A stretch of 39,207 nucleotides of DNA from Reclinomonas americana ATCC 50394. Lineage: Eukaryota. The notes under the pieces are model-generated. The model had not been told where the DNA came from. It saw only the letters and a list, made by a program, of their open reading frames with translations, and did no database searches. The stretch is taken from contig PS015064.1 in the NCBI GenBank assembly GCA_048213135.1, positions 62,001 to 101,207 of the forward strand, read 5' to 3'. The position numbers and the translations under genes were made by a program. This document shows, piece by piece, positions 1-39,207 of this stretch (position 1 is its first letter; each line of letters begins with the position of its first letter).

Positions 1-330
1 GCAGCACGACATGCCAGTCCTCGTTGAGAGATAATGCANNNNNNNNNNNNNNNNNNNNGGGCAGTCGAAAGAGAGTGTCGCTGGACAGCAGCGCGATGCA
101 GTGGAGCGCCACCTCGAGCCACCACCCTGCTTGTCCATTCTGCCGATTTCCCATCGACGAGTCCCATGTCAGTCATCGAAAGCCCGCACGCATCAACGAA
201 GCCACATTGCTCTCACACTACCGTCTGTTGTGCGAGGTGCTGGCTGCAGCCTGGCGAGGGATGGACGACGTCTCGGAGCAAGGCGGGAGAAGAAAGGCGG
301 GAAACAGTGACAATCCGGATATCCCGCAGC
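1..330 (+). repeat. Conserved upstream element of WD40 paralog A (putative promoter/5' region)
   Basis: Aligns with 3666-3975; ~75 bp from 75 is identical. Confidence 0.85.
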
Positions 331-367
331 GAGCAAATCGCACACACACACGCATGCACGGCGGAGA

Positions 368-1557
368 ATGGCAACAAAGGTTGAATCTGCGCATTCGCGG
401 GGTTGGTGTCTGTGCGTGCATTCGTGTGCTCGTGCATGTGTGCGGTCGTTGTTTGTGTGTTTGTGCATGTGCGTCTCACCGCGAGTGATTGATGCAGATC
501 ATTCAGAGTCTCGATATGGTGCGATTCGTCGCCATCGCTCCCGATGGCAAGCACATTGTTGGTGGGTGTGTGGACGGAATTATTCGAGTGTGGTCTGTGG
601 CGAGTGGCAAGGAGGTGCGACGGCTGACGGGACACTCTGATGTGGTGTTTTCTGTCGCCATCACCCCTGANNNNNNNNNNNNNNNNNNNNTGGCAAGTAT
701 ATTGTCAGTAGCAGCTGCGACAACACTGTACGTGTGTGGTCTCTTGCGAGTGGAGAGGAAGCGCGACGGCTGGAGGGACACACCAGCACGGTGTACTCTG
801 TCGCCGTCACCCCTGATGGTCAGCTTATTGTCAGCGGCGGCTTCGACAAGACAGTGCGTGTGTGGTCGTTGATGAGTGGGAAGGAGGTGCGACGGCTGCA
901 GGGACACACTGCAAGGGTGTTGTCTGTCGCTGTCACCCCTGATGGTAAGCACGTTGTGAGCGGCGGTGGAGANNNNNNNNNNNNNNNNNNNNCAACACAG
1001 TGCGAGTGTGGTCTCTGGCGAGTGGGGAGGACGTACGACGGTTGGAAGGACACACTAACTGGGTGATGTCTGTCGCCGTCACTCCCGATGGTCATTACAT
1101 TGTGGGTGGGAGTGGGGACAACACCGTGCGAGTATGGATGCTGGCGAGTGGAGACCAAGTGCGACGATTGGAGGGACACACTGGTGCGGTGTGGTCTGTC
1201 GCCGTCACTTCTGATGGTCAGCACATCATCAGTGGGAGTGGGGACCGCACCATTCGGGTGTGGTCTCTGGCGAGTGGCGATGAAGTGCGACGGTTAGAGG
1301 GACACACGGACCTGGTGATGTCTGTCGCCGTCTCTCCCGATGGCCAGCACATTGTGAGTACGGGTGGCCAAGATAAGACCGTGAGAGTGTGGTCGACGCC
1401 GCGTGGCCTTGCTCGCCTCGAACTCCACGCTGCGCGCTCGGCCCTGCAGGCTGTGCAGGAGATGCAGGAGGAAGAAGTAGATTCACGATGCCTTCCCGAG
1501 CTGGTTCTGCGCTGTTTCATCGTCGAGGATGCCGAGGTCGTCCTTTTCTGGTGCTGA
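368..1557 (+). CDS. WD40 7-repeat propeller protein, paralog A, with helical C-terminal tail
   Basis: Exon 1 ATG GCA ACA AAG (368-379), intron GTTGAA..GCAG (380-497), exon 2 498-1557. Deleting the 20-N gaps at 671-690 and 973-992 restores one frame (TPDGKYIV; GGGDNTVRVW). Seven SVAVTPDG..D.TVRVW repeats of ~42 aa. Confidence 0.9.
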
Positions 1558-2043
1558 GAAGGTGAGTTTGAGAGAGGGAAGGTGGCTGCTGGTGATCGTG
1601 CGTTGTTTTTCGTGTCTTATGAGGGAGAGTGGGTGGGGAAGAGAGGACGACAGAGGAAGAGAGAGAGGTTGTTAAGGAAGAGTTGTTCTCTGTGTTTGTT
1701 GCCCTTTCATGTGAATGTGATTGTGCGGGGGTGAAGCATGTCTCCCTCTGTGTGCGTGTCTCTTTCTCACCTCCATTTGTGTGCAAGTGCGATGAATCAA
1801 TTGGAGTCTGTGATTTCTTTTCCCCTCGTTGTGATGTCTGTTGTGCGTGCATCTTTTGTCGCTGATATACGTGCCTCAGGAGAGCGAGTCACCGTTGTCT
1901 GTTTCCTTCGCGTCTTGCTTTGCGCACCTCCTTGGTGCCACTTTTCTTCCTCTCATTGTGCATGTGCGCCGCGGACAGTCTCTTTCCGGCTCTGCAGGAT
2001 GCATGTCATTCCGCTCTCGAGCCCCTTCCTCTGTCCCTTGTAG

Positions 2044-2079
<36 letters not shown>

Positions 2080-2643
2080 CTCTGTGTGCTCATCTGCTTC
2101 CCCAGTCATCCACCCCTCCTTGCCGCACACGCTCGAGGCCGAGCATGCTTCCCTACTCATGATGCACCGACTGCCATCCTGCCAGTCCATCATGGTGAGC
2201 TTCCCGATGCCGAAATGTGTGAGGTGACATGACTGCGTTCCGATTCTTCTCTCCCTCTCCTTTACAGGATGGTTGTGTGAGCGTCCCTTGGCTTGCTTCT
2301 TGACAAACGCGCGTTGGTATTAGCTGCTGATCGGTGTGTTCGTCGTTGAGACAGAGCAGATATCTCTCTCCACGTCCTCCATTCTTTCGCTCACAGCACA
2401 CCGGCATGCAGGCACCTTGGAAACACGTGCTCCTCGGTGGCCGCGATGCTGACTGGCGTGTCGTGCATTGCCCGTTGTCGGCTATCACCTCACTCACTCG
2501 GCTCCCCACTCGCATCCCACCAATGCACTCAGCAGGTGTGTGGACTTGTTCGGCGTGATCTCTCTTTCCGCTTTCCCTCCCACTCACCTCAGTCGTGTAG
2601 GTCGTGCATGCCATGGAGTGTGTGACGAGGTGGGCATGTGTGC

Positions 2644-3452
2644 CGTGATGTGCGACATGGTGGCTGGTCGGTGGATCGTTTTTCAATCCCGACTGGCAAG
2701 TCGGAGCGAATCAATGATGTGCGCTCCTTGGTTGTCGCTGTCACTGCCGAGTGATGCTGGTGGTGGTCATAGGAGATTGAAGACGCGTGCGTGTCCAGCA
2801 ACATACGGTGCGTGCGTGTTCTGCACGTGCGTTGAGGAACAAGTTGACGAGACTAGTACTTGACGATTGACTGACTCAATTCTGTGTCACAGGCGTGCTG
2901 GCAAGTAATTGTCCACTGGGCAACACGTGGTTCCGTGCCTCACAGTACATGCATGAGACGATTTACCGACCGACTGTGAGTGTGATTGAAGGCCCGAGGC
3001 ATTGATTGTGATGTTGGTGAGAGGAGGCGAGTCTCACGACGCAGCTGCCTCTTCCACCGCTTGCTGTCGTGATGTGCGACATGGTGGCTGGTCGGTGGAT
3101 CGTTTTTCAATCCCGACTGGCAAGTCGGAGCGGATCGATGATGTGAGCTCCTTGGCTGTTGCTGTCACTGCCAGGTGACAATGGTGGTGGCCACGGGGGA
3201 CTGCAGACACATGCTCGGCCAGCAACACATGGTGCGTGCATGCATTTCTGCATCTGCGTTGAGGAACAAGTCGGCGACTCAGTTCTGTGTGTGATCTGAA
3301 CACAGGCGTGCTGGCAAGTGACTGTCATGCGATGACACGTGGTTCCGTGCTTCATAGTGCATGCATGAGACGATACACCGACCGACTGTGAGTATGATTG
3401 AAGGCGCGAGGCATTGATTGTGACTTGGGGGAGGGGAAGCAAGTCTCACGGC
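2644..3452. repeat. ~420 bp tandem duplication (2644-3037 / 3068-3452)
   Basis: The first ~65 bp are identical and the remainder is alignable with substitutions and indels. Confidence 0.85.
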
Positions 3453-3665
3453 GCTGCCTCTTCCGTCGCTGAGCTGCTGAACTGGTCGCTTCTCTCCTGT
3501 TCCTCGTGTCTCTCCTTCTTCGTTGTACCATCATCGTGCCCTCATCAACCTCGCTGTGGGCCGATCCAAGGAGGTGTGCGGTATCGATGACTCGTCGTGC
3601 TTACTCGATTCTCCGATGTGCTCTGCGGTGGCATCAGCACACCAGGGCCACAACTGCGTATCCAA

Positions 3666-3975
3666 GCAGCCCGACATTCCTGTCCTCGTTGGCAGAGAAT
3701 GCAAGTCAGTTGATATGAAGTGTCGCTGGACAGCAGCGCGATGCAGTGGAGCGCCACCTCGAGCCACCACCCTGCTTGTCCATTCTGCCGATTTCTCATC
3801 GACGTGTCTCGTGTCGGTCTTCAAAAGCCGACACGCATAAAAGAAGCCACGTCGCTCTCATACTGCTGTATGCTCTGTGGGGTGCTGGCTACAGCCTGGC
3901 GAGGGATGGACGACGTCTCAGAGCAAGGCGGGAGAAGAAAGGCGGGAAACAGTGACAATCCGGATCCGGAGCGAA
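3666..3975 (+). repeat. Conserved upstream element of WD40 paralog B
   Basis: Direct repeat of 1-330. Confidence 0.85.
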
Positions 3976-4133
3976 CACATCACACACACGCAAACGCTCG
4001 CGAGAACAGACTCTTCGTGACCACCACCGCAGTAGAGTGCCGACCAGGTGGTTTGCTCTCCGAAGAGCGCAAGTCAACAGAAGCGAACCTGCAACGAGAG
4101 GACACGAGAGTCATTTATCCTTCCTCTTTTCCA

Positions 4134-4207
4134 ATGACAACCAAGGTGCGCTCACACGCGCGTGTGTGACAGGGGATTCGTGTATGTGGCTGCTGCTGCT
4201 CTCTTCC

Positions 4208-4249
<42 letters not shown>

Positions 4250-5323
4250 TGCCCATCTCAGTGTGCATGGTCGACACAGATCTTGCGGGGCCACACAGAC
4301 GCGGTGAAGTGTGTCGCCGTCACTCCCGACGGTCTGTTCATCGTGAGCGGTGGCTATGACGGGTCTGTACGTGTGTGGTCACTCGAGAGTGGCGAAGAGG
4401 TGCGACGGTTAGAAGGACACACTGACAAGGTGTGGTCTGTCGCCATCTCTCCCGACGGCCAGCACATTGTGACTGGCGGCATGGACAGGACAGTGAGAGT
4501 GTGGTCCTTTCCGAGCGGAGAGGAAGTGAGACGGTTTGATGAAGCTGTCGGAGGAGCGCCGTCTGTGGCCATCTCTCCCGATGGTCAACACATTGTGAGT
4601 GACACTCACGCTGGTATTTTGCGTGTGTGGTCGCTGGCAACTGGCGGAGAAGTTCGACAGTCTAAGTATCGTTGTGGTATGGTGTGGTCCATCATTGTCA
4701 CGCCCGACTGCCAGCACATTGTGGGCGGAGGTGAGGACACCATACTGCGAGTGTGGTCTCTCGCGAGTCGCGATCTGGATGAGGTGCGACGGTTGGAGGG
4801 ACACACTAGTGCGGTTTGGTCTGTCGCTGTCACTCCCGATGGTCGGTACATGGTGAGCGGAAGTCGAGACACAACTGTGCGATTGTGGTCTGTCGCGAGT
4901 GGAGAAGAGGTGCGGCGGTTGAAGGGACACACTGGCTGGGTGCTCTCTGTTGCCGCCACCTCCGACGGCCAGCACATCGTGAGTGCGGGTGGCCAAGACA
5001 GCACCGTTCGGGTGTGGTCGCTGGCGAGTGGCGAGGAAGTGCGGCGGTTGGAGGGACACACTGACTCGGTATGGTCTGTTGCCGTCACTCCCGATGGACA
5101 ACACATCGTGAGTGGCAGTCGGGACGGGATGATCCGTGTGTGGTCCACGCCGCGTGGGCTGGCGAGGCATGAGCTTGCGGCTGCACGATCAGCCGTGCTG
5201 GCTGTCAATGAGCTGCTTGCTGACGACCACCATGACTGGAACCTGGTCGACGTCGTGCTGCGGTGTTTTGTGCTGGAGGATGCAGCGGTGATTGAACGCC
5301 GTGCGCCAGAGTGGTTGATGTAG
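4134..5323 (+). CDS. WD40 7-repeat propeller protein, paralog B
   Basis: Exon 1 ATG ACA ACC AAG (4134-4145), phase-0 intron GTGCGC..(CT)n..CTCAG (4146-4261), exon 2 4262-5323 in frame (CAWSTQILRGHT). Seven WD40 repeats, then tail STPRGLARHELAAARSAVLAV..VVLRCFVLEDA. Confidence 0.93.
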
Positions 5324-5449
5324 AGAGTGTCGTCCCTGTCACAGTGAATGCTGGGTGCGTCGCCGCACGAGAATGAATACAAGCAAGTCGATTCATTTCA
5401 GTTGGATCAATAGCTGGCTACTTTGAACTCACGTGTACGCGAGAGCGGA

Positions 5450-6456
5450 ATGTCGACAAAGGTGTGGGCGTCTGCGTGTGTGTGCGAGAGAGATGCNNNN
5501 NNNNNNNNNNNNNNNNNNNNNNNNNNNNNNNNNNNNNNNNNNNNNNNNNNNNNNNNNNNNNNNNNNNNNNNNNNNNNNNNNNNNNNNNNNNNNNNNNNNN
5601 NNNNNNNNNNNNNNNNNNNNNNNNNNNNNNNNNNNNNNNNNNNNNNNNNNNNNNNNNNNNNNNNNNNNNNNNNNNNNNNNNNNNNNNNNNNNNNNNNNNN
5701 NNNNNNNNNNNNNNNNNNNNNNNNNNNNNNNNNNNNNNNNNNNNNNNNNNNNNNNNNNNNNNNNNNNNNNNNNNNNNNNNNNNNNNNNNNNNNNNNNNNN
5801 NNNNNNNNNNNNNNNNNNNNNNNNNNNNNNNNNNNNNNNNNNNNNNNNNNNNNNNNNNNNNNNNNNNNNNNNNNNNNNNNNNNNNNNNNNNNNNNNNNNN
5901 NNNNNNNNNNNNNNNNNNNNNNNNNNNNNNNNNNNNNNNNNNNNNNNNNNNNNNNNNNNNNNNNNNNNNNNNNNNNNNNNNNNNNNNNNNNNNNNNNNNN
6001 NNNNNNNNNNNNNNNNNNNNNNNNNNNNNNNNNNNNNNNNNNNNNNNNNNNNNNNNNNNNCATCTCTGTCTGCCTGTCTCCCCACACTCTCCCTTCTTGT
6101 GTGTGTGAGAGAGATCGTGGTTGCTTTCCTGACTCTCTCTCACCCACTCCGTCTCCTTGTGTATGTGAGGTCTGCCTGTCTCCCCACACACGCACACACA
6201 CACACACACTCTTTCCTTTCAGAGAGAGCATGGCCTTGCCGACTTTGTCTCTCTCACTTTCACTTTCACACACACACACACACACACACACTGTCTCTTT
6301 GCGTCGGCCGCGATACGTGTTTGTGAGGTCATGTTTGTTTGTCTCCATCGCTCCTTTCTCTCTCTCCTTCTCGCTCCTTTCTCTCTCTCTTCCTGTTTGC
6401 TCCCTCTCTCTCTCTCTCTCTCTTCCTCACCTTTCCTCCCTCCTTTTCCTTCTCCT

Positions 6457-6493
<37 letters not shown>

Positions 6494-7754
6494 CACTCTC
6501 TCTTCCTGTGTGTGAGAGAGAGCACGGCTGCCTTCCTGACTTTCCCTCTCCTCCGCTCTCTTCTCCCCCTCGCCTTCGCTCCTTTCTCTCTTCTCCTCCC
6601 TCATATTTCCCTTCCTCTCTCTTTCTCCCTCTCTGTCACTCCCTCTCTCTCCTCCCCTCCCTCCTATTTCCCTCTCTCTGCCTCCCCTCTCCCTCCTCCG
6701 CTGGGTGCTGTCTGTTGCCATCACCCCAGACAGTCGCCACATTGTGAGCGGCAGCTGGGACAACACCGTGCGCGTGTGGTCCCTCGCGAATGGTGAAGAA
6801 TTGCGACGATTGGAGGGACACACTGCCGCAGTGCATTCTGTCGCCGTCACCCACCGTGGTCAGCACGTTGTTAGCGGGAGTGCTGATCAGACGGTGCGCG
6901 TGTGGTCCCTCGCGAACGGTGAGGAGGTGCGACGATTGGAGGGACACACTGGAGTTGTGCTGTCGGTCGCTGTGAGCCGTCGCGGTCAGCTCGTTGTCAG
7001 CGGGGGTGGGGATCGGACAGTGCGAGTGTGGTCGCTGACAAGCGGGAAGGAGGCGCGACGACTGGAGGGTCACACTAGCCGAGTGAACTCGATCGCCGTG
7101 TCTCCTGACGACGAACACATCGTGAGCGGGGGCGGGGACATGACAGTGCGCGTGTGGTCGCTGACGAGTGGAGAGCAAGTGCGTCGATTGGAGGGACACT
7201 CCTCCGAGGTGATGTGTGTCACGATGACGCCGAACTGCCTGTACATTGTGAGCGGGAGCGACGACACAACCGTGCGAGTGTGGTCCGTGGCGAGCGGAGA
7301 AGAGGTGTGGCGGTGTGAGGGACACACCGATAAGATGCGGTCTCTCGCCGTGACTCCCGATGGGCAGCACGTTATCAGTGCAAGTGACGACGCGACCATT
7401 CGAGTGTGGTGCATGGCGAGTGGAAAAGAAGTGTATTGGTTGAAGGGGCACATCAGTGGGGTGACGTCTCTCGCCATCTCTCTCAACGGACAGCACCTTG
7501 TGAGTGGGAGTGACGATATGACGATCCGAGTGTGGTCCACGCTGTGTGGCCTCGCCCATCTCGAGCTCGACTGCGCGCGATCGGTCGTGCTCACGGTCAA
7601 GGAGATGCAGGAGGCAGGCACCGGAGAGGAAGTGGATTCGCGATGCCTGCCAGAGATGGTGCTGCGCTGTTTCATCGTCGAGGAGGCGGAAGTTGTGGTG
7701 CACCGCAGACGCCTCGTTGACCAGCCACTGTTTTGGAGTGAGGAGGGCGTTTGA
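5450..7754 (+). CDS. WD40 7-repeat propeller protein, paralog C (5' junction unresolved)
   Basis: Exon 1 ATG TCG ACA AAG|GTGTGG (5450-5461). Open WD40 frame ~6702-7754 with seven repeats and tail LPEMVLRCFIVEEA. The interval contains a 564-N gap and a CT tract, with no AG directly before 6702. Confidence 0.78.
5497..6060. other. Assembly gap (20-N gaps also at 39-58, 671-690, 973-992, 37730-37749)
   Basis: Runs of N. Confidence 0.99.
6061..6700. repeat. CA/CT microsatellite and polypyrimidine tract
   Basis: (CA)n, (CT)n and C/T-rich low-complexity sequence between exon 1 and the WD40 frame of paralog C. Confidence 0.85.
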
Positions 7755-8059: not shown

Positions 8060-8620
8060 TTCTCTCGTTCTTGGTTTCCTATACTATACGCGGAGACTGG
8101 CACGTGAGCGCTCTTGTTTTCTTGCTCTTATTTGCCTCCCATTCTCTCTTACTTGGTTGCTCCGTGCAGCTGTGTACTATTTTCTTGTTGCCCGTGTTCT
8201 ACGCGGAAACTGGCACGTGAGCCTCCACTTTTCTCGCTCTTCGTTGCCCTCTGTTAGTTGCCTCTCCTTCTCTCGTACTTGGTTGCTCCGTGCTGCTGTG
8301 TACTATTTCCTGCTGCTGATGTTCTACGCGTAGACTGGTACGTGAGCCCTTCACTTTTCTCGCTCTTCGTTGCTGCCTATTTGTTGCTTTTCATTCTCTC
8401 GCACCTGGTTGCTCCGTGCAGCTGTGTACTATTCCTGTTGCTGACGTTCCTCGCGGAGACTGGCACGTGAGCCCTCCACTTTTCTCGTTCTTCGTTGCTC
8501 TCTGTTCGTTACCTCTCCTCGAGCTCCTCTCGTACTTGGTTGCTCCGTGCAGCTGTGCTTCTGCCTATGTTCCTCGTGGACCTTTCTCGTTCTTCGTTGC
8601 TCCCTGTTCTTTGCCTCTCC
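8060..8620. repeat. Minisatellite, ~115-125 bp unit, 4-5 copies
   Basis: GAGACTGGCACGTGAGC near 8093, 8205, 8331, 8455 and TTGGTTGCTCCGTGCAGCTGTG near 8153, 8279, 8406, 8536. Confidence 0.9.
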
Positions 8621-14700: not shown

Positions 14701-17100
14701 GTTGTTTCGTGAGCAGAAGGCAACTGCATTACCATACGCGGTGTGCGCATAAATATCTGCGAGACAATCCACACCACCGGTGCCATGATCACGCCTACAG
14801 ACAAGCGTGAGGAACGACGCAGCGGAAGCACAGTGTACAGATCTGAGTGCACGAAACCAGAGATAATGCCAATCAGCATTTCGCGAAGGAAGGCAGAACC
14901 GCCACCCGTGACGGTGGCTTGCTCGGCAAACACGGCATTGGTGTACAGAGCCAGGCATACGGCAAACCACAGAACCTGAAGGAAGTGTGGAGTGAGCAGG
15001 TTATCAAAGAATGGGAGTGAAGAAAGAGACAGAGACACAGTGTGAGTGTCACTTGGGGAAAATGGTCACTCCATATTTCGGTCCAACTAACGCCACTTGC
15101 GGAGAGAAGATAGAGAGGGTGCTCAATGTGAAAAGTAGCACACGATCGAAAGCATTGCACGATACAGCGACAGTGCGTGTGGCGGCGTCTTACAGACTCT
15201 TTTCTCTCCTTCGAAGACGGCAGTGCGACGTGCATGAGTTCTCTGCGAAAGTTTGAAACGCGGCCCCTCTTTCTCTCTCGCATTCTCCTCTTCATACTGT
15301 GCACCGTGACTGCACACAACGCGACAGTCATTGAAGAGTTCTGGTAGTTCTCCATCCCCTCCTTCCCTGTTGCCCTCTCTCTCACCTCTCCCTCTCATGC
15401 TGTGCATCGTGACTGCACACAACGCGACAGTCATTGAAGAGTTCTGGTACTTCTCCATCCCCTCCCTCCCTGTTGCCCTCTCTCTCCCTCTCATGGTGTA
15501 CACCATGACTGCACACAACGCGACAGTCTCCTGAAGAGTTCTGGTAGTTCTCCATCCCCTCCCTCCTCTCTCTCTCTCACACCTCTCCTTCTCATGCTGT
15601 GCACCGTGACTGCATATAGCGCAATAGTCTCCTGAAGAGTCTTGCAACTCCACAACATCGCTACCTCGCTTTCTCCTTGCTTTCCTCTCCAAATCCCTCT
15701 CTGAGTTGAAACAAAACAACTGCTTGGCAGTCATTGCACTGAGCCGACACATCTCCCTCCGTCTCTCTCACTCTCATTGTGCGTACGGCGACAGAACAGT
15801 GTGCTGCGGTTTTGTGAAGAGTCCTGCAAGTCCACCGTCTCCCTTCTCTCATTCCTCTCCGAGTTGAAACAAGACAACTACGTCCCTCGTTTGACAGTCT
15901 CTCCCTGCACACTCTGCGCGCGGCCTGCTGAAGAGTCCTGCAACTTGCCCGTGTCCCTGTCTCCTTGTCTCCCTCTCTCTCTCTTACACCCTGCGCACAG
16001 CCACTGTGCACCTTGCATCCTTTCCTTCTCGCCCCATCCCTCTCAGCACACGGTTACTACTGTGCTAAACTTCCTCATCGCTCATTCTCCTTTCTCTTCT
16101 CCTCTCGTAGTTTGACAACTTAACTGTGTGCCTACAGTAAGTGCGTGAGCCGTGTCTCTCTCTCTCTCTCTGCTGCGAGTTCTCTGTGTGTGCGTCTTTT
16201 CGAACTTGCTCCCTTCTCCCTCTCCCCACCCTTCCACCTCCCCCCTTCCCTCCCTTCTCCCCGTCCCCCTCCCCCTTCCCTCCCTTCTCCCTTCCCTCCC
16301 TTCTCCCTTCCCCCCTCCCCCCCCTTTCCTCCCTCCCACACCGTCACACGCTGCGTTCGACGGAAGCGATCCGCATTCGGGCAGATAATCGTCGAGACCC
16401 ACGAGTGGTCATCTGCACGGAGCCACCACGCTACTCAGAAGCGCACAGTTTGCACTAATCAAGCAGCATGCACACACCTCTCACAGCCGTCCACACAGCC
16501 ACGGCGCGTCTCATCAACCAATTGCGGCCGCGATTGACGCGTATCACCGAGCGCACGAGCTCTGTGCGCATTCAAGTTAGAAACGAGCGTAGAAACGCAA
16601 GAGACTCGCAAGAACAATGGCCACAAAACGTCGGAATCGTGAAACAGCCACGAAATGCCTTTCAAGTGCCCGAAGCGAGTCTGACCAAAAGAATGACAAG
16701 AGTGAGCAGCGCGATGCCACAAGGGCTCTGCGGTAGTCATACACACCTGCATCTTCTGCCTGCAGACCGCGGTCGCGCAGATCGGCGGTGGAGAACACAC
16801 TGTGCACAATCACACACGCTCACTTTCAGGATCAAATCAATGAAATCGCTCGACGCAATACGCACCCGGCAAACTTGACGCCAGCCAACTCTGCCTGTCG
16901 CAACGGCATTTTTAACATGGTGACACATCGGACCAGCTGCCTGTCGCTCGCCTGGTCCATCTTGTAGCCAATGTACAGCTGGATGAGATAGATGACTTGA
17001 ATCACTGGTGCACGCGCGCAGGGTGGTGGTGAGTGGTGAGCAGGCTCGTGGTGACAGCGAGTCGGCGAGTGCTTACCAATGACAATCGAAAATGTCGAGC
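8781..17100 (-). CDS. PKD1-like five-TM region with large TM3-TM4 loop
   Basis: Hydrophobic segments near 17090-16970, 14975-14925, 14885-14745, 9480-9425 and 8970-8915. In-frame poly-Pro at ~14455-14497. Confidence 0.65.
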
Positions 17101-20100
17101 TCCTCAGCAGCTGGCCCGTGAAGAGTGACAGCAGGTCGGCAGGACTGAGAATCACCACGTTAGCTCACTTGCGACTCAACAACACCGCCGAGTACAGACG
17201 CAACGAGACAAAGGTAAAGTGAATGTTGAAGATATCATGCACTGCAGAGAGCGAGAGAGAGAGCAAGGCGAATCAGCACGATTGAACATCCAGACATAAT
17301 TCTCCACCCAAAGGACGCACAATTCACGCTAAAATCCGTCATGTGATTACAACGACACACAAACGACTGCACGTCGTGAGTACCACGCGTCACTCGCACA
17401 AATCTGTCACGTGTGTGCATTCGTCAGGGCAGAGCGCAAACGATGCGTCGTGCGGCGTCGCAACGTTTTGCATCCGTCAGAAATCCACTGCTGCCTGGTC
17501 TCGTTCCAGAACACACACAGCTTGCCGAAATCGGCAGCAGTCGCTGTAGAAACAAACAAGGAACAGAAAAGCGCCGTGAGCAACCCTCGCCTGGCGCCAA
17601 TGGCATCGTGCACACGCACGATTGTCACTGCGGTACACGGTCCGGTTGCAATCTGTGCAGATTCGTAAGCACATGCAACTATTCGTTAGCTGACACACAT
17701 AATTGCAATGCAAAGCGCAACGGCTGTCATCCAGGGTCACTAGCGTCGTGTCGCCATCGTCAACAGCCTCGGGTGAGTGCAAGCCACGCACTCCACAACC
17801 GTCAATGTACTCCAACACATCTCGCTTAGACAGGAGGTGAGACACGACACATTCACAGGCAGGCAGGCATACAAAGAGACGTACCAGCTGCGGTGCGACG
17901 GCGGCCAGGAGCGCGCTGTCTTGACGAGCAATCTCGAACGTGAAAGATTCACCCGCAGTGGCATTCAGAGCGATCGGCACTCCGTTTGCCGTTTGCAGAG
18001 ACACTCGCTGAACAGGACTCAGGAAGACGGTAGTGGAGTTGCGGCTGTCCGTGTAGGGCAGCAGGCCTGTGACAGCCATGTAATGGGAAGACATGCTTCA
18101 GACTACTGCACGCAATACACCAGGTGACCAACCATTGTCGATAAGCGTCGAGGTGATGATCGGGTAGACACCTTGCAGTCGCTCCGTAACGCTCAAGGGG
18201 AACTGGTACTGCGTGACCAGGGAGGAGGCAACATCATCCGTCGGGGGCACGGTGAAGGTGGAGCTGTTGGAGAACTGTGTGCGCAACATAAACAGTTCTT
18301 TTGTAAGCAGTTTCCGAGAGACATGAGCAGGCTGCCAGGGCAGCACAGACCTGGATGCCAGGCGCCGTCGCCGAGGGCGAAAGGTACGCGGACACCAGCT
18401 GTATGTTGGTGCCAATGATGGCAATTGCAGGATCGCCGGCGGTCTTGGTGTTGACAGCATGAAAGCCGACAGTGGACAGCGCCGCGACACCATTATTCGC
18501 CATCTCTCCGTCCAGCACTGTGTCCCGCGTGGCTCCAAACACCGTATCCACCGTCGACACCAGCAGCTGCTCGGTGCGCCAGAGAGTGAGCACACGTAGC
18601 TGCTCACAACGAACAACTAAAATTTTCCCCTGACAACAATCTGCACTTCTTGTCTTCTTTCAGTCTCCGCTCTCTCCATCAAGGATCTCGCCGCAGAGAC
18701 GCAGCAATCGGTGAGTGTGCTTTGAGAACGAAGCAAATGTGAGGTATGTCTATTCCTTGCCCTTCTTCTTCCTTCCTCCCTCTCTCCTCCTTCCTTCTCC
18801 TCTAACTCCCTCCCTTGCCACCGACATGCAGCAATCGGTGAGTGCGCTTGGAAAAACACGCAAGTGAGAGACGTGTCTATTCCTTGCCCTTTCTTCTTCC
18901 TTCTCCTTCCTCTCTCCTTCTTCCTTCTCCTCCCTCTCTATCTCCCTCGCCACCGACATGCAGCAATATTAATCGGTGAGTGTGCTTTACAAAGACGCAA
19001 GTGAGAGGCACGGCTACTTCTCTCCTTTCCTTCTCCTTCCTCTCCCTTTTCCTTCTCCTCCTCTCTCTCTCTCTCTCCCTCGCCACCGACTTGCAAGCAA
19101 TTGGTGAGTGTGCGTTGAGAATAAAGCAAATGTGAGGTATGTCTACTCCTCGCCCTTCTTCCTTCCTCCCTCTCTCCTCCTTCCTTCTCCTCACGCTCTC
19201 TCCCTCGCCACCGACATGCGAGTGTGCTTTTAGAAACACGCAAGTAAGAGGGGTGCCTACTCCTCTCCCTTCCTTCATCCTCCTCCTCTCTCACCCTCAC
19301 CACTGACATGCAGCATCGCCGAGTGTGATAGAGAAAGACGCAAGTGAGAGACGAGTCTACTCTGTCTCCGTCTCCCCTTCTTCCTTCTCCTCCCGCTCTC
19401 TCCCTTGCCCGATATGCAAGCAAATCGGTGAGTGTGCTTTACAAAGACGCACGTGAGAGGCACGGCTACTTCTCTCCCTCTCCTTCTCCTTCCTCTCCCC
19501 TTTTCCTTCTCCTCCTCTCTCTCTCTCTCTCCCGCGCCACCGACATGCAGCAATCGGTGAGTGTGATAGAGAAAGACGCAAGTGAGAGACGAGTCTACTC
19601 CTTGCCCTTTCTTCTTCCTTCCTCTCTCCTCCCCTCTCTCCTTCTTTCTCCTTCCCTCTTTCCTTCATCTATCTCCTCCTCCTCTCCCTCCTTCTCCTTC
19701 TCCTTCCCTCCCTCCCTCTCTCCCTTCCCTACTATCCTCCGCCTGGTTTACCCATCCCTCTCACCTGCACGGAGGACACTGGAAGATAGCTGCCAATCGT
19801 GGCCATGTGCACAGCTGTTTGCATCAGGGAACTCGCAGTAGTGGCAACGGCCGCAGAGTCGCCGCTCTTGCCCATATCACGCAGTGAGCTGACATGCGAA
19901 TACGCCAGTGAGTAAACGAGTTTAAAGTACGCTGAAAAAGGTGGAGACGATCGCACCTGGCCAGATCTCCAGCCACAAACAGCATGGTGGTGGTGGTTTC
20001 GGGAGACAGTGACAAGTCGATTTTGCCAGCAGTCGCCGACAACAACATTGAGGCGTCACGAACGGCTGCTCGGTTGGAAGAGACTGCATCGTCCTTGTGA

Positions 20101-26100: not shown

Positions 26101-29100
26101 CTGCGAACAACTCGAGCACTGGTGTTCTGATCTACAACAGTGGTACAAGGAGCACCAGTCAGAATGGAGTTGCACCACTGTAGCTGGTGGGTGAAGAAAC
26201 CAAACCGGAGATTGCCAGAATGCGAGTCCGTGGTTCGAATGCGACACCCACCTACGAATACGTGCGTGGTGAGCAGAACAGAATACATTTCTCCTGCAGC
26301 ACGTACAACTTACTGGAGTGCGAAAAGTGGCAGTGAGTGGAGAGCCATTATCGTCGCCAGCTTGCCCAGTGCCGGCCACTGTTGTGACTCCAGATCCGTC
26401 AATAACACGAACGCGCTTGGTTCCGTACTAATCGCAGCAAAACGTAGCACTGAGTAATCGTTGCGCATACGACACGTGGAAGAGGCGTAACAGCGATTAC
26501 GCAACGTCAACAACGTACAAATTTCCAGTAATTGGATCCAGGGTGATGCCCTTTGCAGTTGTGAACAGTGCGTCGGTCCCCGCACCGTCCATGTAACCAG
26601 GACTGATAGGGTTACCAACAATGAGGGTGGCCACAAATGTGGCGGTGTCAACCCGGAAAATTCCGTGATTTCCACTGTCGCACACGTACAGGAAACCGCG
26701 CAGCTTGTCGAAGGCTACTTGCTGCAACTGCGTAGTCAGAGCCACGGTGGACGTTATTGCTGGAGTTGTGATCGCTCCGTTATCAATATTAACACATCTG
26801 CGACAGCATTGTTCAAGTGTCAGCATTGCGATCATGCTCTGTGTCGCCGATGGCAGTCCAGTGAGCCGAACCGAAGCGGGCCTGAGTGCGATACAAAGGC
26901 CACGCGAGATGCGAAGTCTACCGCGATACCCAGCGGAACAGAAAACTGGCCACTGGCCAGCGTGGTGACTTGTCCACCAGTCAGTTTTCGCACAGCGTTG
27001 TTGCTCTGCAGTGAGAATGCTTAAGTATGAATCAGTTGATCCTGAGCTCAGCGAGCAAGTAACTGTGTCAGCAATGTACACCTCCGTTCCTAGAGGATCT
27101 ACTGCCACTGCATTCGGGCTGCGAGAGACAACGGTTAGCATCCTTGCTCACCAATGTAATCGCCTGCAAGCAGCAATACTGACCCATTGAACAAGGCTGA
27201 TGTCGCCGGTCCATTCGTAAGTCCCGGAGAGTTGTACACTCCGGCGATGGTTGACACGACGGCTCCGGGACTGATCTTCCTGATTGTTTGACGACTGTAG
27301 TGGTATTCGTGTGAGGCAAAGTGCAGGCGGAATCAGCTATAGGTCAACTTCAGTAAGTCACGCACACTAAATCCGGGATGTAGATATTGCCAATGTCATC
27401 GGCGGCGCCAGCCTGTCAGTCGAGTAACAACATAAGCCAACCCCCTGCTCGCCAAAGAGGGAGAAAAATGAGAACGCAACGCCCGGCCCGCCAAATCGTG
27501 CCGCCGATCCAACGCCATCATCTGGGCCGTTCTGCCCAAATGCTCCAGCTAGCGTGCCCACCACCGGCTGTGCGTCGAACGGCGAAGTCGACAGCTCAAA
27601 CCGTGGAGTCACGCCACTGGATTGCACTCTGCCGAGCAGGGTGGCACTAGTGATAGTGATGTCCCCAACAGATAGCGTGCTCACAATTCCCGCGGCTGTG
27701 AGGTGATAGAAAACCTGTCAGGGAAAGCAATGCGCAGGTAGGGCAGGGTACGGTGGTCACGGTACGCAACTGACAGGCTGGAGCGGCGAACGAGTGGAAA
27801 AGGCAACAATCAAGCCTCGTGCTGATACAATGTTGGTGGCACGGAAGAAGTACGTTGCAGATGGAAACAGTGGCGTGGTCAGCGATGCGATGCGCGTCGC
27901 AATAGAGCTGGTGGGCGGCATGGCACTTAGGCGCCAGGAGGGGAGTGCAAGAAGGCGGATGGCGTGATTGCTGGAATAAGCCAGAAGGAGGGAGCGTGTG
28001 AGTATAAACGCTAGACCATGCAAAGCGTCGACACCAACGAGCAGCACCTGCCACAAACAGGCCCCCTCGAATCCAGGCCACACCATTCTGTGAGTGAGCA
28101 CCCTGGTAAGCATCGCTGCGGGTCAACCCCATACAAGACATTGACCAATTCATACCGGCAAGTTGAGTCGCGATGACCCAGCAAACCCATCAGCAGTGCC
28201 TGGTACAGTAGCCAAGCCAGCCAAGGTGCTGACTTGCGCTTTAATGGGGTCGATCTGTCGAATGGCGGAATTGTTTGTCTGCGACAGCACACTGTTGGGT
28301 CTATCGGCTCTACTGCAGTGCATGGCTCGAGCAGGGACGCAACATCTGCAACGTAGACCACGTTATCAAGGCTGACGGTGATGCCCGCTGGACTATTGAA
28401 TCGTGACACGCTGGTTGCCGCTCCATCCGCAGAGCCGACGCTGCCGGATATACCAGCCAACGTGGAAACCGTGGCAGTGGCCAGAATAATTTTGCGAATG
28501 GTGTGGTTACCAGTGTCTGCCACATACAGCAGCGTGTCCGCACTCGCCAGCGCCACTGCACTTGGCGTATTGAGCCGTGCAGCAGATCCTACTCCATCTG
28601 TGCTAACAGCTGAACCGGACGCGCCAGCAACAACTTGCGTAGCTCCAGCTAGTGTCACAGACCTGAGAAGTGCAGCATGGTGACGATTTAGTTCCACGGC
28701 AAGAGGGTGCATGAATTTATGTGGAGAGTACGTACAGAATAGTGTGGTGGCCGCTGTCGGCCACGTACACCAGCTGGTTCGCGGTAATGGCCAATCCGCG
28801 AGGCGCAGACAAATTAAGATTCGTGGTCAGGGTATCCACTGTGACACCACTGATGCGCCGCACATTGGTGTTACCGTCCTGGAAGCACATCATGTGAGGC
28901 GATGATGATGCGCAATGTGAGGGAGCGAGACACCAAAACCTCCACGACAAATGTGTCGCCGGTGACTTGGTGCACGGCAACGCCTGTGGGACTGTTTGTG
29001 CCATACAGGTCAATGAGCGGGTTTGACATAATGCGCAGAAATATGGTCCGAATACCTCGAGAACATGGCTGACGACACGGATCCATCCAGAGTTCCAGGC

Positions 29101-38922: not shown

Positions 38923-39030
38923 TCCGTCTCTCACGACGGCCTGCACGTGATAAGTGGCAGTGATAATTGCACTGTGCGTGTGTGGCCTGTCGCCAGTGGG
39001 GATGACTTGCGACAGTGGAAGGGACACACA
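38923..39030 (+). pseudogene. Single orphan WD40 repeat of the same family
   Basis: Translates SVSHDGLHVISGSDNCTVRVWPVASGDDLRQWKGHT. Similarity then ends and a stop follows at 39075. Confidence 0.75.
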
Positions 39031-39074: not shown

Positions 39075-39207
39075 ATGTGTGGGGTGCTGGTTGCATCCCT
39101 GCAAGGAATGGAGGACGTCTCAGAGCAAGCCGGGAGAGGGAAGCGACGATGACAACGAACCTCGCTGAGCGAGCGATCGCGCGAGCAAACAACACGTCCA
39201 ACACACA
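39075..39207 (+). repeat. Diverged partial copy of the WD40 upstream element
   Basis: GGTGCTGGTTGCA..ATGGAGGACGTCTCAGAGCAAGCCGGGAGA matches ~235-290 and ~3880-3935. Confidence 0.7.

Follow-up and report, generated by a model that had tools for sequence, protein, structure and literature searches.

The DNA under study, referred to as the window, is a stretch of 39,207 nt in which three genes for WD40 proteins, here called paralogs A, B and C, are neighbours in tandem on the + strand (Table 1). Scores against the Pfam WD40 family (PF00400; cut-off 27) were 236.8 bits for B (E 2.3e-72), 246.5 bits for C (E 2e-75) and 125.7 bits for the third part of A; the part of A at 1000-1554 gave E 3.5e-37. 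The window also contains an element upstream of A with a second copy upstream of B, the relic of a solitary WD40 repeat and a partial copy of the upstream element.

Table 1. Coordinates of the WD40 genes, their tails and the accompanying elements in the window
Feature	Position	Strand	Description
Upstream element of A	74-350	+	277 nt; 88.8% identical to 3719-3992
Paralog A	492-1557	+	Closing strand, seven blades (units 504-1428), tail, stop TGA 1555-1557
Tail of A	1393-1554	+	54 aa
Upstream element of B, second copy	3719-3992	+	88.8% identical to 74-350
Paralog B	4184-5323	+	First in-frame ATG 4184; units 4289-5179; tail; stop TAG 5321-5323
Tail of B	5144-5320	+	59 aa
Paralog C	6699-7754	+	Seven blades (units 6699-7571), tail, stop TGA 7752-7754
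Tail of C	7536-7751	+	72 aa, longest of the three
Solitary WD40 repeat relic	38923-39030	+	tblastn with B: 41-47% identity, E 6e-8
Partial upstream-element copy	39078-39143		83%; downstream of the solitary repeat relic

Gene models and assembly

The start codon of paralog A (ATG 492) lies at the closing strand, two codons downstream of the in-frame stop TGA 486-488; the ATG at position 368 is that of an overlapping ORF in a frame other than the WD frame of A. In paralog B the ATG is followed by a Leu/Ser stretch encoded by a CT repeat, and the propeller starts at about 4271; blades 3 and 4 lack the GH residues and blade 3 also lacks the Asp. Paralog C is devoid of the closing strand, of the first three codons of blade 1 and of an upstream in-frame start codon; its reading frame is open, without a Met, from 6600, and a GTG at 6705 is the first start-type codon past the previous stop in the ORF list. 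Either this gene is a copy truncated at the 5' end or a 5' exon of it has escaped recognition.

The sequence of A is interrupted, inside the repeats, by two 20-N gaps (671-690 and 973-992), each of which splits an Asp codon (ga-N20-t and ga-N20-c), and the frame is intact if the gap length is zero. Upstream of C, a 564-N gap closes to zero length, where the contig of DNA run X1 joins 5496 straight to 6061, i.e., this gap is spurious and gap sizes in this assembly are therefore arbitrary. These gaps would be expected if part of the locus were an assembly artefact, in which collapsed or mis-joined repeats have altered the repeat number or order of A and, possibly, C at its 5' end. The X1 contig, which spans 5277-6175 (a fraction of 0.08 of the sampled words occurs in run X1), is of no help to A or to the repeats of B and C, which are outside its coverage. 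However, zero-length gaps give A exactly seven in-frame blades, like B and C, the ORFs of B and C contain no gaps, and a repeat identity of 53-80% is divergent enough for ordinary assembly, so that we consider an artefact unlikely.

No match to the upstream element was found in Pfam or in Rfam. The copies of A and B are approximately 89% identical, far above the genes downstream, which are synonymously saturated, and this likeness is unaccounted for by a simple old duplication.

Propellers, tails and extent of the family

An AlphaFold2 model of B (4262-5320; pLDDT 92.3, pTM 0.88) is composed of 28 strands and two C-terminal helices; the strands form seven blades, the N-terminal closing strand (residues 4-9) included. 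Its best matches among solved structures are generic repetitive propellers, i.e., PkwA (5yzv; E 8e-31, 38% identity), the designer WRAP-T proteins and 2ymu; for PkwA and the designer seven-blade propellers, the Foldseek TM values, normalised by target length, are 0.96-0.97. About 291 of the 353 residues are aligned in these matches; the tail, modelled as helices at residues 297-320 (pLDDT about 85) and 327-347 (pLDDT 50-70), lies outside the aligned part. An alignment of the three tails displays 22 invariant columns, and no relatives of the tail were found in Pfam, the PDB or the ESM Atlas: the A tail gave nothing in Pfam at E<=1 except a sub-threshold RRM_1 (E 0.067), and none of the three matched a SOCS-box or F-box profile in Pfam at E<=1. 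Each protein is predicted, from the model, to be a seven-bladed moderately repetitive WD40 propeller with a helical tail, about 50-70 aa long, that is specific to the family.

A search of 1.84 billion representative proteins with a profile of the tail (first row, the C tail) returned two matches, P0121 and P0122. The closest relative, P0121, is an ORF from an EST of the jakobid Reclinomonas americana, which shows transcription of one or more members of the family in this organism and which bears out an earlier note on this DNA in describing the genome as protist-like. As judged from these matches, the family appears to be narrow and lineage-restricted. The second match, P0122 (394 aa), starts in the same way as A, its Met being located 17 residues ahead of its first blade. 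This equivalent start, the start of A after an in-frame stop and the finding of no Pfam families in the upstream segments and spacer ORFs support the earlier view that the proteins are stand-alone and without NACHT.

Alternatively, the WD40 ORFs could represent the 3'-terminal exons of larger genes for multi-domain proteins (e.g., NLR/STAND-like or E3-ligase-like), the upstream exons of which are unrecognised. CT-rich tracts precede B and C, that of B ending in a splice-acceptor-like "cag" (4259-4261); neither gene has an ATG beside the closing strand, and the upstream elements could be exons, with an ORF that ends in a W-x10-CPFCR string, presumably resembling the end of a RING finger. Yet many amino-acid changes separate the upstream ORF of A from that of B, the frame of each with respect to its WD ORF is not the same and neither has a Pfam match, nothing is hidden in the 564-N gap upstream of C, and the start sites of A and P0122 also argue against additional exons. 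Longer proteins (616-2000 aa) sharing the tail were not found, which is weak evidence by the search's own caveat. We regard this explanation as very unlikely.

Variable columns and divergence of the repeats

Seven WD40 units of 42 codons per gene, i.e., 21 repeats in all, were anchored on the R[VL]W motif, yielding W-to-W spacings of 42,42,42,42,42,43 in A, of 42,42,42,44,43,42 in B and of 42 six times in C. Tandem Repeats Finder identified 126-129-nt arrays at 691-966, 993-1359, 4697-5125 and 6768-7199, with 72-78% matches. The invariant columns of the unit are R28 and W30, and the DHSW tetrad is made up of GH and the S, D and W of the unit. In DNA, identity between units ranges from 53-80%, and the units have a mean pairwise amino-acid identity of 0.56.

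The residues after GH(T/S) in paralog A had been noted as scrambled (DV-V-F, ST-V-Y, AR-V-L, NW-V-M, GA-V-W, DL-V-M), as had those flanking the conserved Asp (SCDN, GFDK, SGDR, SRDT, SWDN). All these strings were found, and column entropies over the 21 repeats confirm the hypervariability at both sites, which is highest in unit columns 4, 5, 7, 23 and 25 (2.3-3.4 bits, 6-13 residue types). In the predicted propeller the variable sites occupy top-face loops. This pattern is not specific to the locus. Among 120 listed matches, 28 have at least six regularly spaced 42-aa units each; these are unrelated WD40 proteins, mostly prokaryotic or metagenomic, in which the same columns vary most: the top five variable columns include column 7 in 22 of the 28 proteins, and columns 5, 23 and 4 in 21, 19 and 13 of them, respectively. 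Their entropy profiles correlate with that of this family with a median of 0.65, and their internal repeat identity is 0.28-0.78, as compared to 0.56 here. The variable columns are generic top-face positions of WD40 repeats, which lie in the D-A loop, at the beginning of strand A and in the B-C turn.

The repeats had further been described as homogenised, "nearly fixed even at synonymous sites", as in concerted evolution. This description fails, because synonymous divergence is near saturation (mean pS 0.564 over 210 pairs, dS about 1.1) and equal within genes (pS 0.549) and between genes (0.545 for the same blade, 0.575 for different blades), as well as for propellers compared in register (0.51-0.57) and out of register (0.52-0.63). 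The single-copy tails are as saturated as the repeats (pS 0.57-0.64). No conversion-like identical tracts between repeats were found, as a run equal to the longest one, 23 nt, also arose in 212 of 500 column shuffles, and the 21 units did not group by gene. What stands of the claim is a position-specific use of codons, i.e., GGA in column 1 (14/17), CAC in column 2 (17/17), GTG in column 6 (17/19), TCT in column 8 (15/18), GCC in column 10 (16/19) and GTG in column 29 (19/20), but not at other conserved columns, where R28 is encoded by five codons, S31 by four (6/6/6/1) and G35 also by four (7/7/4/2). The same amino acid has an identical codon in a fraction of 0.545 of pairs within a column vs 0.318 across columns. 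This codon use leaves room for an old or slow exchange between repeats, as does the tree, where neighbouring repeats pair in a few cases (A1-A2 and C1-C2). Across the paralogs, blades at the same position show weak orthology, with blade 7 and the pair A5-B5 as the only exceptions.

The scaffold has a pN of 0.18 vs a pS of 0.56, with significant purifying selection in 12 of the 42 columns, and the likeness of the scaffolds results from purifying selection on the fold rather than from recent gene conversion. Diversifying selection, also proposed earlier, was not seen: none of the 42 columns has a significant nonsynonymous excess (smallest p 0.20, column 5) with weak parsimony counting on saturated data. 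In these saturated data, the rate of change in the hypervariable columns is roughly 1.0-1.5-fold that of synonymous sites on average, and their pN of 0.63 is near the random level of 0.71, i.e., they have drifted or adapted to near-randomness. The pN of these columns is still 0.60 in the lowest-pS quartile of pairs (pS 0.43), which would also fit weak diversifying selection masked by saturation. However, the pS quartiles of the pairs (0.50/0.56/0.63) fit a standard deviation of about 0.09, as expected from ~29 synonymous sites (own calculation); the low-pS pairs are expected sampling noise, and choosing them therefore biases the comparison.

These data bear on the suggestion of a diversifying recognition repertoire, where top-face residues would be selected and repeats exchanged as in HET-E/NWD, without a NOD module. 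Columns 5, 7, 23 and 25 correspond one-to-one to codons 7, 9, 25 and 27 of HET-E/NWD, reported as positively selected in Podospora anserina (Paoletti 2007, PMC1805685). This correspondence, the location of the hypervariable columns in top-face loops of the model, their near-random pN, also in the lowest-pS quartile, the weak positional orthology of the blades, and the tandem genes together with the solitary repeat relic are all consistent with such a repertoire, but the repeats are not near-identical, conversion tracts are absent, no column displays a significant nonsynonymous excess, unrelated WD40 proteins are variable in these columns as well, and the low-pS pairs are explicable as noise in a biased choice. 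A repertoire for non-self recognition is neither required nor favoured by the data, and we consider it improbable.

Even less probable, in our view, are jakobid-restricted NOD-less WD40 receptors of a "split" recognition system, in which interchangeable sensors would plug via the tail into a separately encoded signalling partner. If this were the case, the members would differ almost completely at the four HET-E/NWD specificity positions and share a unique tail, and the 277-nt upstream element, with its unusual conservation, would serve them in common for regulation or recombination.

The locus probably comprises three old tandem paralogs, C being 5'-truncated, of lineage-restricted small stand-alone WD40 proteins with a helical tail. 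From its architecture, each of these paralogs may be a cytosolic protein-binding adaptor, where the top face of the propeller would bind a partner specific to the paralog and the conserved tail could be the module through which all members dock onto one and the same partner or complex.

Relation to known WD40 systems

The HET-E/HET-D/NWD proteins, which are NACHT-WD40 NLRs of P. anserina, vary most at the same four positions, which flank a conserved Val and Asp on the propeller top face. In contrast, a NACHT or effector domain is absent here, and NWD repeats are up to 100% identical (PMC1805685), whereas the units of this family are divergent in DNA and without conversion tracts. They do not cluster by gene, display no significant dN>dS (on saturated data and with weak parsimony counting) and are found as exactly seven blades per gene.

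WSB1 and WSB2 are WD40 substrate adaptors with a short C-terminal SOCS box. The likeness to these proteins is architectural only, i.e., a propeller and a short helical C-terminal module with which a common partner could be docked, the tails here having no SOCS-box or F-box match at E<=1. None of the three C-termini ends in an SKL-type tripeptide, which is the PTS1 motif, and the propellers are consensus-like rather than Pex7-like; as compared by description only, the family may differ in both features from Gcp1-3. These WD40 proteins, found alongside the mitochondrial T2SS among protists, jakobids included, are described as Pex7-like, and a PTS1 at the C-terminus is predicted for many of them (Horvathova et al. 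2021, PMC8134430).

The closest likeness is to the moderately and highly repetitive WD40s of prokaryotes, protists and fungi, for which variable hotspot positions on a conserved scaffold are described generally (Hu et al. 2017, PMC5587647). Regular near-consensus 42-aa units, the residues of the DHSW tetrad and such hotspots are common to these proteins and this family, which, at an identity of 0.56, falls within their "moderately repetitive" (MR) class (internal identity 0.4-0.7) when measured as an all-pairs mean, a procedure that differs from that of Hu et al. 2017. Structurally, the solved repetitive propellers of the PkwA WD40 domain (5yzv) and of Nostoc (2ymu) are the most alike. What this family adds is a two-helix C-terminal tail without a match in Pfam, the PDB or the ESM Atlas, a single seven-blade domain unaccompanied by a kinase, TIR, NACHT or any further partner domain, and a tandem arrangement of the genes in a eukaryote.

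Gene models of the three paralogs

The sequence has the make-up of a draft eukaryotic contig (~55% GC, CT, GA and CA microsatellites, five runs of N), and WD40 is the sole Pfam family recognised in the three + strand ORFs of its first 8 kb, referred to as paralogs A, B and C (see table). Each WD40 ORF contains arrays of 126-129 nt, as identified with Tandem Repeats Finder, which with the R[VL]W motif as an anchor resolve into seven units of 42 codons per gene, 21 in total, with three small indels. A unit corresponds to one blade of the propeller, and its codon positions are numbered here as columns 1-42. Past blade 7, each gene continues into a tail of 54-72 aa, and alignment of the three tails revealed 22 invariant columns. 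All strings quoted in the earlier note are found in the sequences of A, B or C.

In paralog A an in-frame TGA is found two codons before the ATG at 492, which is the start of the N-terminal closing strand, while position 368, where the gene had been proposed to start, is the start of an overlapping ORF that is read in a different frame from the WD ORF of A. The ORF at 3-488 and the WD ORF of A (489-1557) are in the same frame and are separated solely by the TGA at 486-488. Read-through of this codon, fusing the two, was considered and rejected; the counterparts in B are in different frames, and both A and C end in TGA, so that the shared frame is taken as a coincidence. The two 20-N gaps of A are located inside Asp codons, and the frame is kept if their length is zero. 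A larger gap of 564 N (5497-6060) could be assessed using X1, a DNA run and the one public sequencing run with word matches to the locus (a fraction of 0.08 of the words sampled); no RNA run was among those listed. X1 yielded a single contig here, which covers only 5277-6175. In this 378-nt contig, position 5496 is joined to 6061 with no letters between, i.e., the 564-N gap is spurious, and the gap sizes in the assembly are arbitrary placeholders.

The ORF of paralog B is open from 4037, with the first in-frame ATG at 4184, and a Leu/Ser stretch encoded by a CT repeat is found between this ATG and the propeller. In paralog C, the closing strand and an upstream start codon are missing and blade 1 is short of its first three codons, and the 564-N gap upstream, once closed with the X1 contig, hides no exon. 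It is either a 5'-truncated copy or a gene with an unrecognised exon.

Features of the WD40 locus and of the remaining window
Feature	Position (nt)	Strand	Details
Three WD40 ORFs	first 8 kb	+	PF00400 (Pfam), E 3.5e-37, 2.3e-72, 2e-75
Paralog A	492-1557	+	tail 54 aa
Paralog B	4184-5323	+	tail 59 aa
Paralog C	6699-7754	+	tail 72 aa
Upstream element before A	74-350		277 nt
Upstream element before B	3719-3992
Tandem duplication, ~420 nt	2641-3061 and 3065-3470		80% identity; A-B spacer
Tandem repeat	8128-8557		period 126 nt, that of the WD40 unit; 3.4 copies, 83% matches
Tandem arrays, CT-rich sequence	18687-19659 and 15272-15640		periods ~127-129 nt and ~101-103 nt
ORF with NHL repeat	28011-28712	-	PF01436, E 2e-8; another beta-propeller-type repeat
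Solitary WD40 repeat relic	38923-39030	+	41-47% identity to units of B
Partial upstream-element copy	39078-39143		83% identity; right after the WD40 relic, at the window end

Divergence of the repeats and placement of the variable columns

The earlier note described the scaffold of the repeats as homogenised, i.e., as nearly fixed even at synonymous sites. The synonymous sites have instead diverged: the DNA identity between units is 53-80%, and the Nei-Gojobori pS over the 210 unit pairs is 0.564, which corresponds to a dS of ~1.1. Values of pS are 0.549 within genes, compared to 0.545 between genes for the same blade and 0.575 between genes for different blades, and the propellers display a pS of 0.51-0.57 in register and 0.52-0.63 out of register. 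Intragenic exchange cannot homogenise single-copy tails, and in these tails the pS is 0.57-0.64. The saturated tails, together with the equal pS of the propellers, show that the paralogs are old and that divergence among the repeats equals that among the genes. Between aligned units, stretches of identical sequence extend to at most 23 nt, and 212 of 500 shuffles in which the column composition was kept contain one at least this long. Position-specific codon use does exist, however: the same amino acid is encoded by an identical codon in 0.545 of the pairs in the same column, compared to 0.318 across columns (e.g., GGA in 14 of 17 at column 1 and TCT in 15 of 18 at column 8). This preference is a residual signal of shared ancestry, far from fixation, and is the source of the earlier impression. 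At the protein level the scaffold is constrained, with a pN of 0.18 vs a pS of 0.56, and a tree-based counting test identified significant purifying selection at 12 of the 42 columns.

An AlphaFold2 model of B (pLDDT 92.3, pTM 0.88) displays 28 strands, four in each of seven blades and with the N-terminal closing strand (residues 4-9) counted in, followed by a tail with predicted helices at residues 297-320 (pLDDT ~85) and 327-347 (pLDDT 50-70). The structures from the PDB that matched this model in a Foldseek search are generic repetitive propellers, i.e., PkwA (5yzv), the WRAP-T designer proteins, 2ymu, LIS1 and WDR5. These alignments cover ~291 columns, i.e., the tail is without a structural match in the PDB. 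In WD40 proteins, the D-A loop with the start of strand A and the B-C turn define the top face of the propeller. In the model, columns 4-5 are located before strand A and column 7 is its second residue, and the B-C turn contains columns 23 and 25, one on each side of the Asp. The expectation that the variable residues cluster on one face is thus borne out at the level of the predicted structure.

At these five hypervariable columns the pN is 0.63, compared to a random level of 0.71, and they change at 1.0-1.5 times the mean synonymous rate in the counting test. Among the saturated within-genome repeats, this test detected a significant nonsynonymous excess at none of the 42 columns (smallest p 0.20), and diversifying selection at the top face, as proposed earlier, cannot be shown. 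The pairs with the lowest pS hint at an omega >1 at the hypervariable columns (e.g., A5-B5, with a pS of 0.29 and a pN of 0.63 at these columns). Estimating omega from the closest pairs was nevertheless rejected as biased, because the spread in pS (quartiles 0.50/0.56/0.63) matches the sampling noise on ~29 synonymous sites, for which we calculated an sd of ~0.09. A NOD-less recognition repertoire would be consistent with variability clustered on the top face; given the diverged synonymous sites and the outcome of the counting test, we consider it improbable.

Relatives, the upstream element and the surrounding sequence

A profile of the three tails, used to search 1.84 billion representative proteins, identified two, here called P0121 and P0122. 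The former (E 7e-22), an ORF of 116 aa, derives from an EST of Reclinomonas americana that is included in EukProt, which shows transcription of the WD40-tail family in this species. With an identity of 60-68% to A, B and C, it is either an additional member of the family or an ortholog in a related organism. The latter (E 1.5e-9; 394 aa) combines degenerate WD40 repeats with the same tail, and its Met start is located 17 residues ahead of the first blade. A full-length search with C yielded, among the matches listed, only generic WD40 proteins (26-56% identity, ~79% coverage, tail uncovered), which are uninformative on orthology. Tail-only searches found nothing among proteins of 193-615 aa or of 616-2000 aa, none of 85 pattern matches in JGI metagenome contigs was confirmed, the ESM Atlas returned no usable match, and no match above noise came from Pfam searches of the three tails and of six spacer ORFs. 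The empty tail-restricted searches, together with the stop-then-ATG arrangement at A, support the stand-alone, NACHT-less architecture that had been proposed, as well as a narrow distribution, which is probably restricted to jakobids.

The two copies of the upstream element are 88.8% identical, including a block of ~77 nt with zero differences, and are far closer to each other than the adjoining, synonymously saturated A and B genes are. By eye, the likeness reaches further, across the first N gap (8-38 vs ~3672-3702). At the amino-acid level, the ORFs over the element have many differences between the copies, they matched no Pfam family, and a search of the whole window, the element included, gave no Rfam match. 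The element is non-coding and, puzzlingly, either much younger than the genes behind it or under far stronger constraint; candidate explanations are a role in regulation or in a UTR, a dispersed repeat that accompanies the family, and a conversion tract of recent origin. The WD40 relic and the partial element copy at the window end suggest that the family undergoes birth-and-death turnover, or that another unit starts at the window edge.

Elsewhere, the possibility that the 126-nt tandem repeat after C is the remains of a WD array was rejected, because neither blastn nor tblastn revealed similarity to the WD arrays. A Pfam search of ten ORFs of the 21-37 kb region found nothing beyond the one NHL repeat match. 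The base skew changes sign near 20 kb, the + strand being CT-rich before this point and AG-rich after.

Comparison with other repetitive WD40 proteins

Collectively, the data show that A, B and C are tandem paralogs of old origin and belong to a family of small WD40 proteins that is restricted to one lineage. In the best-supported reading, which draws on architecture, they would be adaptors with diverged top faces, each binding different partners, and the shared helical tail would be a common docking module. The locus adds a WD40 family that is small, apparently confined to jakobids, and equipped with a previously undescribed C-terminal tail. If this tail is a docking module, the family would allow the partitioning of ligands among paralogous propellers to be studied in a simple system from a deep-branching eukaryote.

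The pattern of scrambled columns is not special to this family. Among the 120 matches of the full-length search that were listed, 28 contain six or more 42-aa units at regular spacing and are mostly metagenomic or prokaryotic. In these, the five most variable columns include column 7 in 22 proteins, column 5 in 21, column 23 in 19 and column 4 in 13, and internal identities are 0.28-0.78, compared to 0.56 for the units of A, B and C. According to Hu et al. (2017, PMC5587647), WD40 proteins are classed as highly (internal identity at least 0.7) or moderately (0.4-0.7) repetitive, repetitive forms abound in prokaryotes, protists and fungi, and hotspot sites stay diverse in highly repetitive repeats. 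Tempting as the pattern is, a conserved scaffold with scrambled top-face codons is the normal look of any regular, consensus-like WD40 array, and the locus, as read here, serves as a negative control: scoring a recognition repertoire also needs synonymous near-identity, conversion tracts or polymorphism among the repeats. In the NWD genes, as described by Paoletti et al. (2007, PMC1805685), positive selection acts on codons 7, 9, 25 and 27, which are equivalent to columns 5, 7, 23 and 25 of A, B and C. In the same description, however, these codons vary against a background of near-identical repeats ("up to 100%" identity within and between genes), which is absent in the units of A, B and C.
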